The notes under the pieces are model-generated. The model made no database searches, had not been told where the DNA came from, and saw nothing but the letters and a program-made list of their open reading frames with translations. Both the position numbers and the translations under genes were made by a program. From a virus (lineage: Duplodnaviria > Caudoviricetes), in IMG/VR virus record IMGVR_UViG_3300024346_000003: 64,000 nt of DNA; one strand, given 5' to 3'. Shown here one piece after another: positions 17,221 through 24,175 of the stretch. Position 1 is the stretch's first letter. Each line of letters starts with the position of its first letter.

Positions 17221-19821
17221 TTATTTACCTCTTCGTTTAGGTCCACTACCAGTAACTTTGCCACCACTTGATGCTTCTTCACTACTTATATGAACACCTT
17301 GAGTTATTTTTTTCATTATATCTGGTTGATTTACGATACTTTCCCAAAATTTAGAATCACTAGGTGCATCAACTGATATTTTAATATTTAAATCATTAAA
17401 TTTATGTGTTGTTTCATTTGATGAACCCCCATTACCCATTTTTTCAGCTAATTTAGCATTACCACCAGCTTGAGTTCCAGCAATTGTAATAGCATCATTT
17501 ACTTTTAAGAATTTATCTTGCGGGTGAAACATAATACCATCTTGCATACCAACACTTTTGAAATCACCAGCTTTATTTTTACCTCTACCAGCTGAAACTG
17601 CGGTTGCATTTTCATTGCCCCATATTGCATCACCAATTTCTTCACCTAATGCACTACCAGCAATACCACCAATTATACCACCAAGTAAAACACCAACAGG
17701 GCCACCAATAGCACCCATTGCAGCACCAGCAGCAGCACCACCCATTGCGCCACCACCTTTCGATACAGTTCTACCAGCATTTTCACCACCACTCATACCC
17801 GTAGCAGCATTTTCACTATATTCATCATAAGCAGCAAAACCACCAGCAAGAAGACCAGCACCACCAGGACCTTTTAAAAATTTACCAATTTTACCAAATC
17901 TACCCATTTTACCTGATTTACCCTTTCCTTTTCCGTCACCCATATCCAACATATCAAGCATAGAACCACCGCCACCACCTCCACCACTAGCTACTGAATT
18001 GAATCCCATACCTAATAATTTACCATTCAACAACCACATTGCTGACTCGCCAAGATATTTTAAAATAGAACCACCAAATATTGCCGCACCAGCAGTAACT
18101 GCCGCTGTTATTGGATTATTTTTCATAAAATCACTAATATATTTTATAAAATCACCAACACCCTTAATAACACCTTCGACCATATCTCTAAATTCTGAAC
18201 TATTAAACCATTTAGCTAATTCTTTAACTCTTTCACCAAAATTTTCTCTTAAAGATTTAGCTAATGGTAATAACATTTCTTTTACCATTAAAATTAAGTC
18301 TTGTATAGTTTCATCAAAAGACCTACCAAATTCAGCTCTTTCCTGTAATGTTTTATCCTCAGCTTTAATCCTTGCAATATCATTTTTATTTAAATCTTTT
18401 AAATCTTTACTAAAGCTACCAGCTTCTATTTTCCATTTACCATCTTTAAATTTAGCAAATGAACTTATTAGTTGAGTATCTTCTTCACCAAAAATACCAG
18501 ATTTAAGATTTTTACCAACTTCCACAATTTTAAGTTGAGCCGAACCCATTTCTTTTAACTCCTCAACAGCTATACCAGTTATTGTTGATATCTCACGCAT
18601 TCTATCAGCAGCCAAACCAGCTTTAATATTAAATTCACCAGTCTCTTTATTAAATTCAATAAATTCAGCAGAAGCTTTACCAACATCTTTAGAAAATCCA
18701 GCCATATCATTTCTACTTTTAAATAGTAATGTCATCGGGTCACCTAGTTTAGCAAATTCACCACCCATTGTTGTTAATTGAGCGGCCATTTCTATTGCAC
18801 CTTCTGGTCTAAATACTTTTTCAGCCATACCAGCAATACCTTGCATATCTAATTTTAATCTAGTAGCTTCAACTGATAACTTAGCTAAACCAGCAATACC
18901 ACCTTTAAAATTAAATCTTTGTGCTAATTTTAAATTGTTTTGTAATGACTTTAATGCAGCGGCACCATTTACACCAAGTTTAGCAGCTTTATTCATAGTC
19001 ATCTCAACTATTGAGCCAGACCTTTCAGCTGAAATGTTAAATTTATCCATTTCAGCAGCCATACCAACAGCAAATTCCTTACCTAACCCAGTACCTTCAG
19101 CCATACCAGCCATAGCCTTATAACCATCTTCAGTCAACATCACCGACTTTCCAATAGCTTCACTATAACCTTGTTGCATAACAGCCAAATCCTTAACACC
19201 AACACCCCACATTGTGGTTGTTTTAGCAGAATCTTTAATAGTATTATAAAGATTGTTAAATGTTTTTTCAGAACCAGCCATGCTTTTATTAGCATTTAAT
19301 ATAGCTTTGTCCATTTCAAAGATTCCAGTACCCTTAAGCATACCGAAACCTTTAGTGATTAAACCTGGTACTTTACCTAAAAAACCAACTGCTGAACCTA
19401 ATCCAGCGCTTATTAAACTAGTTTGTTTTACTTGTTCAGTTAACTCAGCTGTTTGTTGCTTAAGTAAACCTAATTCTTTTTCAGTTATATCTACACCTTC
19501 TTTTTTAGCTGCAATTATTTTTTTTAATTCTTTTTCCTTTTCTTTAAGTGCTTTTATTTCATTAGCATCACCGTCTGCTGTTGCTTTATTAAGTTTTTTA
19601 GTATTTTCTAATAAATCATTTTCAGCTTTAAGTTGTTCTTTTTTTAATTGAGCGACTTTTTGCTCAATAAATTGTAAGTTTTTTTGTAGTTCAGTTAATT
19701 TTTTAACACCTTCCATATAACCATTAAGGTTACTGTTCATCTTTTCCTGAAGTTCAGCAGATTCCTTTTGAGCTTGTTTCCACTCCTCAAATTTTTTCTT
19801 ATCAAATTCGTATTTTGCCAT
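17221..19821 (-). CDS. Tape measure protein
   Basis: Long helical, Ala/Gly/Lys-rich protein; coiled-coil N-terminus; hydrophobic glycine-zipper GGAAAGAAMGAIGGPVG; lies between chaperone and baseplate genes. Confidence 0.75.
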   Translation of the reverse strand: MAKYEFDKKKFEEWKQAQKESAELQEKMNSNLNGYMEGVKKLTELQKNLQFIEQKVAQLKKEQLKAENDLLENTKKLNKATADGDANEIKALKEKEKELKKIIAAKKEGVDITEKELGLLKQQTAELTEQVKQTSLISAGLGSAVGFLGKVPGLITKGFGMLKGTGIFEMDKAILNANKSMAGSEKTFNNLYNTIKDSAKTTTMWGVGVKDLAVMQQGYSEAIGKSVMLTEDGYKAMAGMAEGTGLGKEFAVGMAAEMDKFNISAERSGSIVEMTMNKAAKLGVNGAAALKSLQNNLKLAQRFNFKGGIAGLAKLSVEATRLKLDMQGIAGMAEKVFRPEGAIEMAAQLTTMGGEFAKLGDPMTLLFKSRNDMAGFSKDVGKASAEFIEFNKETGEFNIKAGLAADRMREISTITGIAVEELKEMGSAQLKIVEVGKNLKSGIFGEEDTQLISSFAKFKDGKWKIEAGSFSKDLKDLNKNDIARIKAEDKTLQERAEFGRSFDETIQDLILMVKEMLLPLAKSLRENFGERVKELAKWFNSSEFRDMVEGVIKGVGDFIKYISDFMKNNPITAAVTAGAAIFGGSILKYLGESAMWLLNGKLLGMGFNSVASGGGGGGGSMLDMLDMGDGKGKGKSGKMGRFGKIGKFLKGPGGAGLLAGGFAAYDEYSENAATGMSGGENAGRTVSKGGGAMGGAAAGAAMGAIGGPVGVLLGGIIGGIAGSALGEEIGDAIWGNENATAVSAGRGKNKAGDFKSVGMQDGIMFHPQDKFLKVNDAITIAGTQAGGNAKLAEKMGNGGSSNETTHKFNDLNIKISVDAPSDSKFWESIVNQPDIMKKITQGVHISSEEASSGGKVTGSGPKRRGK

Positions 19822-19823
19822 AA

Positions 19824-21230
19824 TTAGTAAGCGTCAGTAACTCTTATTGTTCTATTTTCACGATATTCATTATCGGTATTATAATCTATTATTAATGTAG
19901 CTCTAAAGTCATTTTTAGTATCACCGTAAATTGAATTTATTTTAAACATAAATCCTTTACCGTAAAGAAAAACAGTTACACCACCATCAACATTTGTTCT
20001 TTTCTTTGTTTTAACTTTATATTTTTTTGTAATATCTAATATTACCTCACCTCTACTAAATGTTTTATCTAATAACTGTACAAAATATTCTTGGTTATTT
20101 TTAAAGAAATCAACAACTAAATCTTTTTCTTTATCATCACCAGACCTACCACCAAATTCATTAAAATTCTTTAATATTTTTTTAGCGGCCAATATTCCTT
20201 TAGGTTTACCACCCACTAGTTTTTTCCAAAATCCTGGTTTAGATAAAAATGCAGCTTTAAATGTGGGGTCATTCAAAACCATACTAGTTATATCCTCTGG
20301 TGACATATCATCAATTTCCTCATCAGATATATCTTTTATATCCTTTGTATCACCAGACATTTTTTCTTCACCATCTTCTTTATCTGACTTACCAGTTAAG
20401 TCAATATCTATAATATTCTTAATTAAGATTTTTTTATATGACCTATTGTTTTCATCATCCTGACCTTTAACTATTTTTTTAAAAGTAATATTGTATACTG
20501 AATCAACATTCTCATCATCAGTTGTTGATGATACCATTTGTTGAACTGAATTAGAATCAATATCAAGCATCAATTCAGCGTTAATTAAATCACTATATGA
20601 TTTTGCTGGACCAGTTAAACCATCATGCTCAAAGAACAGACTATCATCCTTATTATCAATTAAATTTAAACTTATTGTACCACCATTTGATAATACTAGT
20701 TTATATACATTACCAGGTTTTAAACTTTTTAATTCATCTAAAAATGGATTAATATCTCTTACCTTTACGTAATCTTTAAATTTTTCATCTTCAGCATCAG
20801 GTTTCTCAATATCAATAGTATCACCACCCATATTAAGTTTTGATATATTTTTAAATGTTGAACTTCGCCATGTATTAATTGGAAATGATTTTAATAACTC
20901 TTTTAATTTTACTGAATCATTAGTTTCACCTTTAAGGTTATCTGGTAAATTTTTAGGGACATTAATAGTTTTAAATGTCAAATCATCTTTTGATAAATCA
21001 GTAATAGTTATAAAAAAATAATTATTCTTATAAACACCACTATCCAAGTTCTTTAAATAAACTTGACCACTATCATTAAATATCACTTCAAATGAAAGGT
21101 TAGTACCCTTATCATCAGTATATTCTAATTTATCACCTACTTTAAGCTTTTTAATTACATCTTGATACTTTTCTTCGGTTATTAAACCTTTAGATACCAA
21201 AAATCGCCATTCATTAATTATTATCTTCAT
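19824..21230 (-). CDS. Hypothetical late protein, possible internal head protein
   Basis: 468 aa; N-terminus MKIIINE...LITEE; own ATATTTAT motif. Confidence 0.5.
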   Translation of the reverse strand: MKIIINEWRFLVSKGLITEEKYQDVIKKLKVGDKLEYTDDKGTNLSFEVIFNDSGQVYLKNLDSGVYKNNYFFITITDLSKDDLTFKTINVPKNLPDNLKGETNDSVKLKELLKSFPINTWRSSTFKNISKLNMGGDTIDIEKPDAEDEKFKDYVKVRDINPFLDELKSLKPGNVYKLVLSNGGTISLNLIDNKDDSLFFEHDGLTGPAKSYSDLINAELMLDIDSNSVQQMVSSTTDDENVDSVYNITFKKIVKGQDDENNRSYKKILIKNIIDIDLTGKSDKEDGEEKMSGDTKDIKDISDEEIDDMSPEDITSMVLNDPTFKAAFLSKPGFWKKLVGGKPKGILAAKKILKNFNEFGGRSGDDKEKDLVVDFFKNNQEYFVQLLDKTFSRGEVILDITKKYKVKTKKRTNVDGGVTVFLYGKGFMFKINSIYGDTKNDFRATLIIDYNTDNEYRENRTIRVTDAY

Positions 21231-21286
21231 TATTAAAATAGTTACTATTAATAAATATCTAATCTAAAGAAAAATACCCAACTAAT

Positions 21287-21562
21287 TTACTGGTTGGGTA
21301 TTTCTCCTGATTTTAATCTTGCTTTTAATTGGTCACCACTAACTTTAGTTGACCTGGTACCTTTAGCACCTTTGTTGTTTATTTCCTCTTTTTGCTCTTC
21401 TAAAGCTTCAGTTTTTCTATTATTTTCATTTAACAAATGTGATAAATACTGTCTCCTTTCGTAAACTGACATATTTAAAACATCTGAATACGTAAACCCA
21501 ATATGTTTAACACAATAATAAATTTCCTCTAATAGGTAATTTTTATATGTTAAAGTCAGGCC
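21287..21562 (-). CDS. Tail assembly chaperone downstream (T-like/gp51-like) frame, probably reached by frameshift
   Basis: The frame is open well upstream of ATG 21472 (GLTLTYKNYLLEEIYYCVKHIGFTYSDVLNMSVYERRQYL) with no ATG/GTG/TTG, and overlaps the end of the previous gene. Confidence 0.65.
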   Translation of the reverse strand, partial: GLTLTYKNYLLEEIYYCVKHIGFTYSDVLNMSVYERRQYLSHLLNENNRKTEALEEQKEEINNKGAKGTRSTKVSGDQLKARLKSGEIPNQ

Positions 21563-22610
21563 AAAAAAACTTGACCGTAAAGGGAAGAAACCTAGTAACG
21601 GACCCTCCCCCAGGGGTCCCGAACGTAATGTTCATATCAATACCACAATCTAATTCTGACATATAGGTTTTTAATTTTTTACTATCCATGATTCTCATTG
21701 TATCAATAAATTCAGAAATATAGTTTTTATCTCTATTTCCATCAATTTCAACAACCTGAGACTCAAGTAATAATGTTGATTCAGTATTAATTAAATTATT
21801 TTCTTCTTTTAAAAATAATGCTAACTTTTCAAGCTCACTAATTTCACCAACTGTCAATAATTTAAATTTAACAGTTGATTTTGATAAAGGTAATGTAAAT
21901 GTAAACAACCCCTCACCATCTGGCTCAACTGATAAATGTTTAACTTTAAGTTTAGTTAAATCAACTTCAGTTTCAAATGGTTTATCATTTTCATCTAAAA
22001 TTGTAACTGGATACATTTCACCATAACCAGTAGCTCTAAGCCAAACCATAATAGCATCTCTATCACCAGGTATCAAATCATTATATCTTAATTCTGGTTC
22101 TAATATTTTTCTATTTAATAATATTTCTAAGAAATCACCACTCTCAAGTAAGTTTGGTGATGTTAAAATATTTTCATCAGCCGCAGTTAAGAATGAAACT
22201 TTAATTTTACCTTTTTTATTTCTATATAACTTACCTTCACTTGGTAATGGAATGATATCATAAGGTTGATTCATTTGTGGTTGACTAATTTGAGCTATTT
22301 CAATATCTCTATTAGTGTTGATTTGTGGTTTTAAATTTTCCATTGGACTTTTCATTGTGTGTTGTTGTACTTCAACTCTTGGGTTTAATACTTCTTGAGC
22401 AACATCTTGATTTGATGATTTTAAGGATTCCTCTCTTAATCGTAATTGTTCAGCTGTTCTTCTAGCCATTTCAGTTGCCGCCTCTATTTCACCAGAAGAC
22501 ACCTGATTATTCATTATTGTTTCTTCTTGCTCTTTTGCGATTTGCACCCCAGTTTGATTTGCTGCGGCAATTTGGTCTGCCGTTGGGAAGACTTTTGGTC
22601 TGTTTTCCAT
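21543..22610 (-). CDS. Tail assembly chaperone (T4 gp26-like)
   Basis: IPLPSEGKLY...FLTAADENILTS...DL..GDRDAIMVWLRATGYGE.YPV; between tube and tape measure; ends KFFWPDFNI. Confidence 0.75.
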   Translation of the reverse strand: MENRPKVFPTADQIAAANQTGVQIAKEQEETIMNNQVSSGEIEAATEMARRTAEQLRLREESLKSSNQDVAQEVLNPRVEVQQHTMKSPMENLKPQINTNRDIEIAQISQPQMNQPYDIIPLPSEGKLYRNKKGKIKVSFLTAADENILTSPNLLESGDFLEILLNRKILEPELRYNDLIPGDRDAIMVWLRATGYGEMYPVTILDENDKPFETEVDLTKLKVKHLSVEPDGEGLFTFTLPLSKSTVKFKLLTVGEISELEKLALFLKEENNLINTESTLLLESQVVEIDGNRDKNYISEFIDTMRIMDSKKLKTYMSELDCGIDMNITFGTPGGGSVTRFLPFTVKFFWPDFNI

Positions 22611-22693: not shown

Positions 22694-22720
22694 AAAAAAA
22701 CCACTTTTAAAAGTGGTTTT
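22694..22720 (-). terminator. Terminator
   Basis: AAAACCACTTT-TA-AAAGTGGTTTT with A-run on plus strand. Confidence 0.7.
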
Positions 22721-23686: not shown

Positions 23687-24175
23687 CTAGAACAAAAGTA
23701 TAGCTCTGTCAAATCTCATGTCAGCTGTGATATCTGCGATACCATCATCATCCATCGATAAGTCACCAAAGTTAACATTCGTCAACATTGTACCTTGCAA
23801 TTGCCATTTTTCAATAACAACTCCAGTTGGGTCCAACATCTCTAATTCAATATCTTTTTTGTAACCAGCAGCATAACCCTGTCTACCTGTAATAGATTCA
23901 GATTGTAAACGAACCCATTCCATAATAGCTTGAGCAGCAGATGGCCCAATAGGGTCTCTAAACGTCACACTTATAGATTCCCATGTAAATCTACCGATTA
24001 CCCAAGTAGATGTGTTTAGGAAAGGTATTTCAACCTCATTTTGTGTTATAGAAGGTCTTGAGGCAGACGCTAACCACCATTCTTGTATACCTAAATCAGC
24101 TGGAAATCTTAAAAGCCATCTATTCTTCTTTTTAGGCTCATAAGGTACGGGCATTTTCATCAATAAATCAGCCAT
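23687..24175 (-). CDS. gp19: Tail tube protein (T4 gp19-like)
   Basis: EPKKKNRWLLRF, ASRPSI, W..ISVTFRD, VMEW-like IMEW, YKKDI.LEMLDP.G.VIEKW.L.G; directly follows sheath. Confidence 0.9.
   Translation of the reverse strand: MADLLMKMPVPYEPKKKNRWLLRFPADLGIQEWWLASASRPSITQNEVEIPFLNTSTWVIGRFTWESISVTFRDPIGPSAAQAIMEWVRLQSESITGRQGYAAGYKKDIELEMLDPTGVVIEKWQLQGTMLTNVNFGDLSMDDDGIADITADMRFDRAILLF

Follow-up and report, generated by a model that had tools for sequence, protein, structure and literature searches.

Recoding in the tail assembly chaperone genes of long-tailed phages is textbook knowledge, and nearly all of the known frameshifts in these genes run in the -1 direction. Phage P2, with its products E and E+E', is one case, and Xu, Hendrix and Duda (2004) reportedly described the frameshift, typified by lambda gpG/gpGT, as a conserved property of such genes. 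According to a review, G-T frameshifting is a conserved trait of long-tailed phages "except T4" (PMC5009743). Both gp26 and gp51 of T4 are classed as hub assembly chaperones, and gp51 is absent from the particle (PMC3004832). Here, we consider a chaperone gene on the minus strand of a stretch of viral DNA of 64,000 nucleotides (nt), referred to throughout as the window (Duplodnaviria; Caudoviricetes; IMG/VR virus record IMGVR_UViG_3300024346_000003), together with a second reading frame that continues past the end of this gene. It appears, with a probability of about 0.9, that recoding into the +1 frame allows this gene to specify two proteins, a short form like T4 gp26 and a long form like T4 gp51.

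Reading frames and conservation of the chaperone locus

The 0-frame open reading frame (ORF; 22610..21543, minus strand) terminates AAG TTT TTT TGG CCT GAC TTT AAC ATA TAA, so that its stop codon lies six codons past a Phe-Phe pair encoded within a run of seven T's (the T7 run, 21569..21563). The +1 frame is open from approx. 21636 to a stop at 21289..21287 and reads ...SSFFGLTLTYKNYLLEEIYYCVKHIGFTYSDVLNMSVYERR... and ...FFGLTLTYKNYLLEEIYYCVKHIGFTYSDVLNMSVYERR..., and the third reading frame across the region is riddled with stops. The earliest ATG, GTG or TTG in the +1 frame is the ATG at 21472, which is situated well within protein-like sequence. The end of the 0-frame ORF, the T7 run, the lack of an early start codon in the +1 frame and an inverted repeat upstream of the run had been noticed in a preliminary description of the locus, and all proved to be correctly placed on the minus strand. 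Passage from frame 0 into the +1 frame at the run would join 349 residues to 91, giving a predicted fusion of 440 amino acids (aa).

The arrangement is not peculiar to the window. In a wider scan of 80 loci at 32-99% identity, 79 of which were readable, a homologous +1 extension was found in 78; these extensions continue for 44-116 codons beyond the 0-frame stop and match the extension profile at E-values of 1e-42 to 5e-7, and the -1 frame matches this profile in none of the 79. The lone exception, L104 (IMGVR_UViG_3300034104_003933), has a 28-codon extension without a profile match, and this copy may be truncated or damaged. All ten close IMG/VR loci (71-99% protein identity) retain the T7 run, the 0-frame stop six codons on and the +1 ORF, three marine loci at 50-56% identity show the same arrangement, and the end point is the same in over 120 protein clusters reaching down to 50% identity, where it corresponds to 79% of the fused query. 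The peptide pattern G-L-[TSD]-x-x-Y-[KR] at the beginning of the +1 sequence persists where the 0-frame tail varies or is already over. Comparison of homologous loci, which had been named beforehand as a check on the proposed frameshift, has come out in its favour with respect to the T run, the frame offset and the peptide alike.

More distant phages were reached only by searching with the 0-frame protein, since neither blastn with the locus nor tblastn with the extension gave a match among 50,697 phage records. A +1-frame extension can be recognised by eye in four database phages, namely Flavobacterium phage immuto, Microcystis phage Mel-JY01, Listeria phage LIS04 and the megaphage LR756508 (484 kb). 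Each of them has one gene of the family, ending in frame 0 at about position 150-236 of the profile, whereas T4 has two. In immuto, Mel-JY01 and LIS04, the sheath and tube genes are followed by the chaperone with its extension and then by the tape measure gene or a long ORF instead (with an additional 71-aa ORF after the chaperone and extension in Mel-JY01), and the space of the extension carries a small annotated ORF or none. The genome of Bacillus phage AR9 contains no PF12322 or phrog_150 match. The arrangement is spread over a large clade consisting mostly of freshwater and marine uncultured phages, together with several database phages.

Selection on the extension is evident from the stretch between the 0-frame stop and the first ATG, for which seven sequences of the window's clade gave a non-synonymous rate (dN) of 0.117 and a synonymous rate (dS) of 2.9, i.e., a ratio of 0.04, and in which the two other frames carry stops. 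The +1 extension is under strong purifying selection. Start codons and shift sites were counted in 86 unique homologous loci, and profile matches in 53 extension peptides. From the point where the +1 frame opens up to the conserved Gly-Leu, no ATG, GTG or TTG occurs in 40 of the 86 loci and no ATG in 76, and the starts of the small ORFs predicted by gene callers are scattered within the conserved region. When the extension profile was searched against 1.8 billion representatives, it retrieved short called ORFs alone and no long single-frame fusion. In the -1 frame, most loci, though not all, have a stop directly past the run (UUG GCC UGA or UAA, from CCT GAC or CCT AAC); in these, a backward slip would therefore terminate at once.

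Relationship to T4 gp26 and gp51

The gene had initially been labelled an anonymous tail chaperone. The word chaperone still holds, and matches to PF12322 and phrog_150 now refine the label: the protein belongs to the T4 gp26/gp51 family, in which the short form corresponds to gp26 and the long form would correspond to gp51. The 0-frame product matches PF12322 at an E-value of 2.9e-5 (24.3 bits, just below the cut-off of 24.5), and many close homologues have precomputed PF12322 assignments. Against phrog_150 ("baseplate hub"), it scores 37 bits (E 4.8e-9) over positions 8-218 of 282, and the fused product scores 45.2 bits (E 1.5e-11) over positions 8-278. The PF12322 core comprises chaperone residues ~111-355. 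Residues ~1-110 are kept in the window's clade and are missing from T4 gp26 and gp51 and from the immuto and LIS04 homologues. The end of the 0-frame product, ...VKFFWPDFNI-stop, aligns with the end of T4 gp26 (208 aa), ...KEFFELL-stop, within an alignment that runs end to end; the 0-frame product is therefore a complete gp26 homologue.

T4 gp51 (249 aa) is a paralogue of gp26 in which PF12322 covers residues 1-201 (E 3.9e-52) and is followed by a C-terminal tail. Accordingly, phrog_150 is covered at positions 13-280 of 282 by gp51 and 14-235 by gp26, and the gp51 tail by itself matches phrog_150 at 228-281 as well as phrog_634 ("hub assembly catalyst"). The extension probably is homologous to this tail. 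Indeed, six of the 53 extension peptides, taken alone, match phrog_634 (best E 3.4e-7); hhalign of the 86 fused proteins with gp51 homologues gives an alignment (E 0.0035) that crosses the junction and reaches the end of gp51, and the extension aligned with the gp51 tail gives an E-value of 0.0077; moreover, 30% of the members of a look-alike cluster returned by a feature search carry Pfam Gp51_C. The scores are weak and agree in direction. Together with the conservation of the locus and with purifying selection on a sequence that lacks a start codon, this similarity to the longer paralogue upholds the original proposal of a chaperone of ~440 aa made by a programmed shift into the +1 frame.

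Several other properties of the protein deserve mention. A match to DUF6760 (PF20546) at E up to 0.01 was obtained for 14 of the 53 extensions (best 3.4e-5), and the extension of the window itself scores 20.8-21.5 bits against this family, below the gathering cut-off of 27; this similarity is no more than a hint of a related bacterial family. The AlphaFold2 (AF2) model of the extension is helical, with a predicted local distance difference test (pLDDT) value of 80, and its fold has no match in the PDB at E up to 0.001. The last ~45 aa of the extension (21290-21420, minus strand) comprise a linker of low complexity and then a conserved basic end, KG.R...[VI]SG..LK...K.G.I, which is missing in T4 gp51 and in which the confidence of the model is lower. 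The zinc-ribbon cysteines (CxxC ... CPxC) are not found in the window, where TPGGGS replaces the CPECGK of T4 gp26. They are retained in the Listeria LIS04 homologue, and the zinc ribbon is therefore not universal in the family. Complex prediction for the extension with the tail tube protein gave a score of 0.29 against a mark of 0.32.

The site of the shift and how the frame may be changed

The sequence at the site is TTT TTT TGG CCT in 74 of the 86 loci, TTT TTT TAY CCT in eight, TTT CTT TGG CCY in three and CTT TTC TAC CCA in one, and further variants are TTT TTA TGG (L057), TTT TTT AGT (Listeria LIS04) and TTT CTA TTC (megaphage LR756508). Where the site encodes Phe-Phe, it is TTT TTT in 82 of 82 cases, compared with a gene-wide TTT share of 0.78 of Phe codons, for which the naive probability is ~1e-19 with loci that are not independent. 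The first codon conforms to YUU_Y (Y, pyrimidine) in all 86 unique sites and in the four database phages. At every variant, the tRNA on this codon can re-pair one base forward (UUU to UUU or UUC, CUU to UUU), and several variants offer no re-pairing at -2. The A-site codon is UGG, UAY or UUU, i.e., no stop codon occupies the A site. The sole GGAGG-like element lies in the loop of a hairpin ~36-44 nt upstream, and no Shine-Dalgarno-like element is present 3 nt upstream.

Stops in relatives narrow the site further. The +1 frame of six lineages contains a stop that ends 3 nt upstream of the run's first T; in other lineages, the 0-frame stop is located 15 nt past the first T, and in L024 it directly follows CCT. 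If the mechanism is shared, the shift must therefore occur within nt -2 to +15, that is, within TTT TTT TGG CCT and one further codon. Substitutions 5' of the run obey frame 0, being either synonymous (ACG/ACA) or exchanges among V, L and I that would be R, H or Q in frame +1. The preliminary description had offered CTT CCC TTT, just upstream, as an alternative site; it is rejected on account of the +1-frame stops 3 nt before the run and of the frame-0 substitutions.

The region 5' of the run is structured. The arms of the inverted repeat (21619..21614 and 21605..21600) end 30 nt before the T run, and in 29 superclade sequences 92.5% of the cells of this hairpin pair, compared with 29-63% when the partner is slid, a value reached by 0 of 500 shuffles. 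Two pairs change on both sides (A-U/U-A/G-C and G-C/A-U/C-G). The hairpin, which had been pointed out as unusually GC-rich from the window alone, is thus real and covarying. Between it and the run lies a pyrimidine tract that varies little or not at all among 29 sequences down to ~43% protein identity and includes a CCC proline codon, unusual in DNA of ~28% GC. A long helix of GGGGGAGGG with UUUCUUCCC, which would pair the G-rich loop with the pyrimidine tract, was predicted and then rejected, as it shows no covariation and slid controls pair equally well. Across the family, the 45 nt 5' of the site fold more stably than synonymous-codon variants, with a mean z of -1.28 and 32% of loci below -2, whereas control windows in the same genes have a mean z of -0.08, with 5% below -2 (Mann-Whitney P 1.6e-15, computed on loci that are not independent). 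The 45 nt downstream are mildly structured (mean z -0.89), and the whole 121-nt fold is not more stable than dinucleotide shuffles (z -0.28). In many distant relatives, stems unrelated in sequence lie 5' of the run with their ends 0-6 nt away from it (33 of the 53 structured loci), as in GACATCC-CTAT-GGATGTC-AGC-T7 and ACGGTGAT-N7-ATCACCGT-ACGA-T7. No Rfam family matched at the site, and a terminator scan gave nothing there. It has been reported that an upstream hairpin can stimulate +1 frameshifting (PMC3639245). However, the 5' structure does not decide the mechanism, because hairpins can aid both +1 frameshifting and polymerase slippage, and the 30-nt distance in the window fits neither model neatly.

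It is reasonable to propose the following sequence of events. Most ribosomes would stay in frame and stop six codons past the Phe-Phe pair, producing the 355-aa equivalent of gp26. A minority would shift one base forward on UUU_UUU_UGG, the P-site tRNA-Phe re-pairing from UUU onto the overlapping UUU, so that GGC would be read in place of UGG and translation would proceed for 91 codons to yield a protein of 440 aa, ...VKFF-GLTLTYK..., built like gp51. Judging from lambda gpG/gpGT, the body common to both forms might hold the tape measure or hub during assembly, and the extra C-terminal tail might recruit another tail component; neither form would be expected in the virion. Ribosomal +1 slippage on YUU_Y is a rather likely form of this step, judging from the variant sites. 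It is preferred because the broken-run variants remain codon-phased and able to re-pair and because the hairpin of the window is not adjacent to the run. Comparison with other systems is in agreement with this: RF2 (release factor 2) genes usually use CUU_U, those of a minority of species having UUU_U instead; +1 shifts are favoured where the A-site codon is read slowly; and at the Ty1 site, CUU_AGG_C, the +1 codon is likewise GGC (PMC5009743). We infer the ribosomal nature of the step, its efficiency, the role of the hairpin and the binding partners, the efficiency and the partners solely by analogy with lambda G/GT.

A number of observations weigh against this interpretation. UUU_U is reported to have worked far less well than CUU_U as a +1 site when tested in E. 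coli (PMC5009743), and the A-site codon is a sense codon and not a stop. As many as 82 of the 86 sites are T7 homopolymers, and in many distant relatives the run is preceded at 0-6 nt by a hairpin, a geometry like that of hairpin-assisted transcriptional slippage; the hairpin of the window's own clade, at 30 nt, is too distant to touch a ribosome on the run. The sole metatranscriptome contig corresponds to 22180-22374 (~95% identity) and is therefore off the site. The scores for homology to the gp51 tail are weak, whether taken from phrog_150 (+8 bits), hhalign (E 0.0035-0.0077, low probability) or phrog_634 (6/53). Finally, the loci are phylogenetically related, so that the counts and P values overstate their independence.

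The same two proteins could arise if the polymerase, rather than the ribosome, changed register. In transcriptional slippage, the polymerase would realign on the seven T's (A's in the template), aided in some relatives by a nascent hairpin close upstream, some mRNAs would lack one U, and the long form would be made from them by ordinary translation; only the step would differ, and the biology of a short gp26-like and a long gp51-like form would be unchanged. The prevalence of the homopolymer, the use of TTT for both Phe codons without exception and the stems that abut the run in distant relatives all speak for it, as does a Roseiflexus insertion sequence (IS) in which, as described in a review, a stem-loop directly 5' of T5C5 leads to transcripts minus one base, a +1-like outcome (PMC5009743). 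However, the extension is kept where the run is broken (TTTCTTT in four lineages, CTTTTC, TTTTTTA and TTTCTATTC), which codon-phased re-pairing explains better, the covarying hairpin of the window's clade is 30 nt upstream, the terminator scan had no hit at the site, and high efficiency in vivo has been shown with runs of nine A's or T's (PMC5009743). Transcriptional slippage is the less likely origin of the long form, but a serious rival. The preliminary description had also left the direction of the shift as +1 or -2. Of these, +1 is the more likely. In a ribosomal -2 shift, tRNA-Phe on the second UUU would move back two bases and insert an extra Phe (...KFFFGLT..., junction ...VKFFFGLTLTYK); the T7 run permits perfect re-pairing there and the frame reached is identical, but UUU_UUA_UGG (L057) and UUU_CUA_UUC (LR756508) allow re-pairing at +1 and not at -2, which leaves this variant with little credibility.

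Two further explanations dispense with recoding altogether. If the downstream sequence were a separate gene, a protein of ~90 aa would be made on its own, either from a start codon of a non-canonical kind or by ribosomes re-initiating past the stop of frame 0. This would accord with the 60-105-aa ORF that gene callers often place there, with the ATG, GTG or TTG that occurs within the overlap in 46 of the 86 loci, and with the internal product 26' annotated for T4 gene 26. Nonetheless, 40 loci, including the window, have no such codon before the selected sequence Gly-Leu...Tyr-Lys...LLEEIY, the called starts vary in place inside the conserved region, the invariant phase of TTT TTT T and the +1 offset would be left unexplained, and in gp51 the corresponding tail is covalently joined to the body. 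It is therefore very improbable that two genes are involved. Alternatively, a single-base indel might have split a once continuous gene, either in the assembly, as homopolymers are error-prone in sequencing, or in a decaying gene. The preliminary description had itself named an assembly error as grounds for abandoning the frameshift, and this concern has been laid to rest: 78 of the 79 loci, divergent as they are and drawn from many samples, have the identical offset, three independent DNA runs yielded contigs that span the T7 run in agreement and without gaps, and the DNA is present in about 19 separate studies. Decay, in turn, is at odds with the strong purifying selection on the extension (dN/dS 0.04) and with a 0-frame end that is the natural end of T4 gp26. 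The probability of either is practically negligible.

Neighbourhood of the gene and relation to known systems

The window is part of a 109-kb IMG/VR contig with a GC content of ~30%. Because CheckV rates this contig as 31% complete, the source virus, which is from fresh water, is probably a giant phage. On the minus strand, the gene order is a 944-aa ORF, the tail tube gene, a 286-aa ORF, the chaperone gene, a 468-aa ORF and the tape measure gene (Table 1). The 3' end of the 468-aa ORF is 2 nt before the tape measure start; in relatives, the same slot holds ORFs of 453-529 aa, and a counterpart is missing in the immuto, LIS04 and Mel-JY01 phages.

Table 1. Positions of the chaperone gene, of the elements at and around the putative shift site, and of neighbouring genes in the window.
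Feature	Coordinates	Strand	Basis or remark
Short hub/tail assembly chaperone, gp26-like, 355 aa (0-frame ORF)	21543..22610	-	PF12322 and phrog_150 matches
Chaperone residues 1-110, clade-specific N-terminal extension	22281-22610	-	pattern MxxxxPxVFPT..QI..AN.TG ... EM.RRT.EQL
RNA hairpin GGACCC-CUGGGGGA-GGGUCC with purine-rich, Shine-Dalgarno-like loop	21600..21619	-	covariation
Pyrimidine tract UUUCUUCCCUUU (TTT CTT CCC TTT; frame 0 F L P F)	21579..21590	-	conservation
Putative recoding site AAG UUU UUU UGG CCU	21558..21572	-	conservation in 86 loci; flanking stops in relatives
Dual-coding overlap: frame 0 W P D F N I stop; frame +1 G L T L T Y K	21543..21562	-	
+1-frame extension, 91 codons from GGC (Gly), stop 21289..21287	21287..21562	-	probable gp51-type C-terminal tail, then basic motif
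Terminator-like hairpin UACCCAAC-N10-GUUGGGUA then UUUUU	21270..21300	-	read from sequence; encloses the +1 ORF stop codon
468-aa ORF between chaperone and tape measure	19824..21230	-	no Pfam or PHROG family matched
Tape measure gene	17221..19821	-	phrog_794, phrog_167, phrog_23574, all tail length tape measure
Tail tube gene	23687..24175	-	phrog_4542 tail tube, E 7e-27

Two further hairpins flank the chaperone gene and its extension. Between the 286-aa ORF and the chaperone gene, there is a terminator-like hairpin formed by a perfect palindrome of 10 bp, AAAACCACTT-TTAA-AAGTGGTTTT, which has T runs on either side (window positions 22697-22720, both strands). At the other end, the terminator-like hairpin at the +1 stop, which the terminator scan left out because its loop exceeds 8 nt, is followed on its 3' side by an AT-rich motif, AGATTAGATATTTATTAATAG, at 21240-21270 (minus strand). 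Both recur in relatives down to ~50% protein identity, where matching peptide-like traces are seen past the stops, and they may represent a terminator together with a late promoter for the 468-aa gene.

A literature search on frameshifting in gp26/gp51 homologues (gp26, gp51, PF12322, DUF6760), which left most subscription journals outside its reach, found no published report. UUU_UUU_UGG with a 5' structure may tentatively be regarded as a ribosomal +1 signal not described before, with a sense codon in the A site, no stop codon and no Shine-Dalgarno element close by, that has been kept in hundreds of uncultured myoviruses and in several cultured ones. The long form has been missed in the database phage annotations examined and in the gene calls of relatives. 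Within this context, the cultured phages with the same arrangement (Flavobacterium immuto, Microcystis Mel-JY01 and Listeria LIS04) and the natural series of site variants and 5' structures offer material for studies on bacterial +1 recoding, and a testable role emerges for two poorly understood T4 proteins, gp26 being G-like and gp51 GT-like.

Among systems that shift forward, RF2 (prfB, CUU_UGA_C) is similar in that it would share with the phage sites a +1 shift with P-site re-pairing on YUU_U, both CUU_U and UUU_U being found in the phage family. It differs in that its A site is occupied by a stop codon and its shift site is preceded, at 3 nt, by a Shine-Dalgarno-like element, neither of which occurs here, and in its purpose, which is autoregulation in RF2, whereas the phage gene presumably delivers two products in a set ratio. 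The slippage site of the Roseiflexus IS630-family elements (Penno et al. 2015), as described in a review (PMC5009743), resembles many relatives of the window in its T-rich run behind a stem-loop and in an outcome equal to the loss of one base; in the window, however, the hairpin is 30 nt off and the run is T7GG rather than T5C5.

With lambda gpG/gpGT, the locus has in common a short and a C-terminally extended form with the same N-terminal body, a site only a few codons before the 0-frame stop and a position between the tail tube and tape measure genes. The shift is nonetheless +1 and not -1, it would take place on UUU_UUU_UGG and not on an X_XXY_YYZ heptamer, and no similarity of the window chaperone to lambda gpG or gpT sequences was detected.

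The relationship to T4 is one of protein family: the short form ends as gp26 does, and the long form appears to carry the tail that distinguishes gp51. The window protein has lost the zinc-ribbon cysteines, has ~110 additional N-terminal aa and continues for ~45 residues beyond the gp51-like helices. The main difference lies in the genes, since T4 has two diverged genes, 26 and 51, beside 25, 27, 28 and 29, and no frameshift, whereas one gene is found here. T4 genes 26 and 51 (L021, 5803-7229) are adjacent, divergently transcribed paralogues of one Pfam family, and, counting 26', T4 may make three forms of the chaperone. Although T4 is quoted as the exception that lacks the frameshift (PMC5009743), relatives of its gp26 and gp51 thus appear to use a conserved shift into the +1 frame, and this family, as far as its sequences indicate, ties T4 to the rule of a two-form chaperone. 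If UUU_UUU_UGG is indeed a genuine ribosomal +1 signal, the T4 gp26/gp51 pair would be the long-missing counterpart of lambda G/GT, and the two-form rule would hold for all long-tailed phages, including T4, with clades differing in whether they rely on a +1 shift or on gene duplication.

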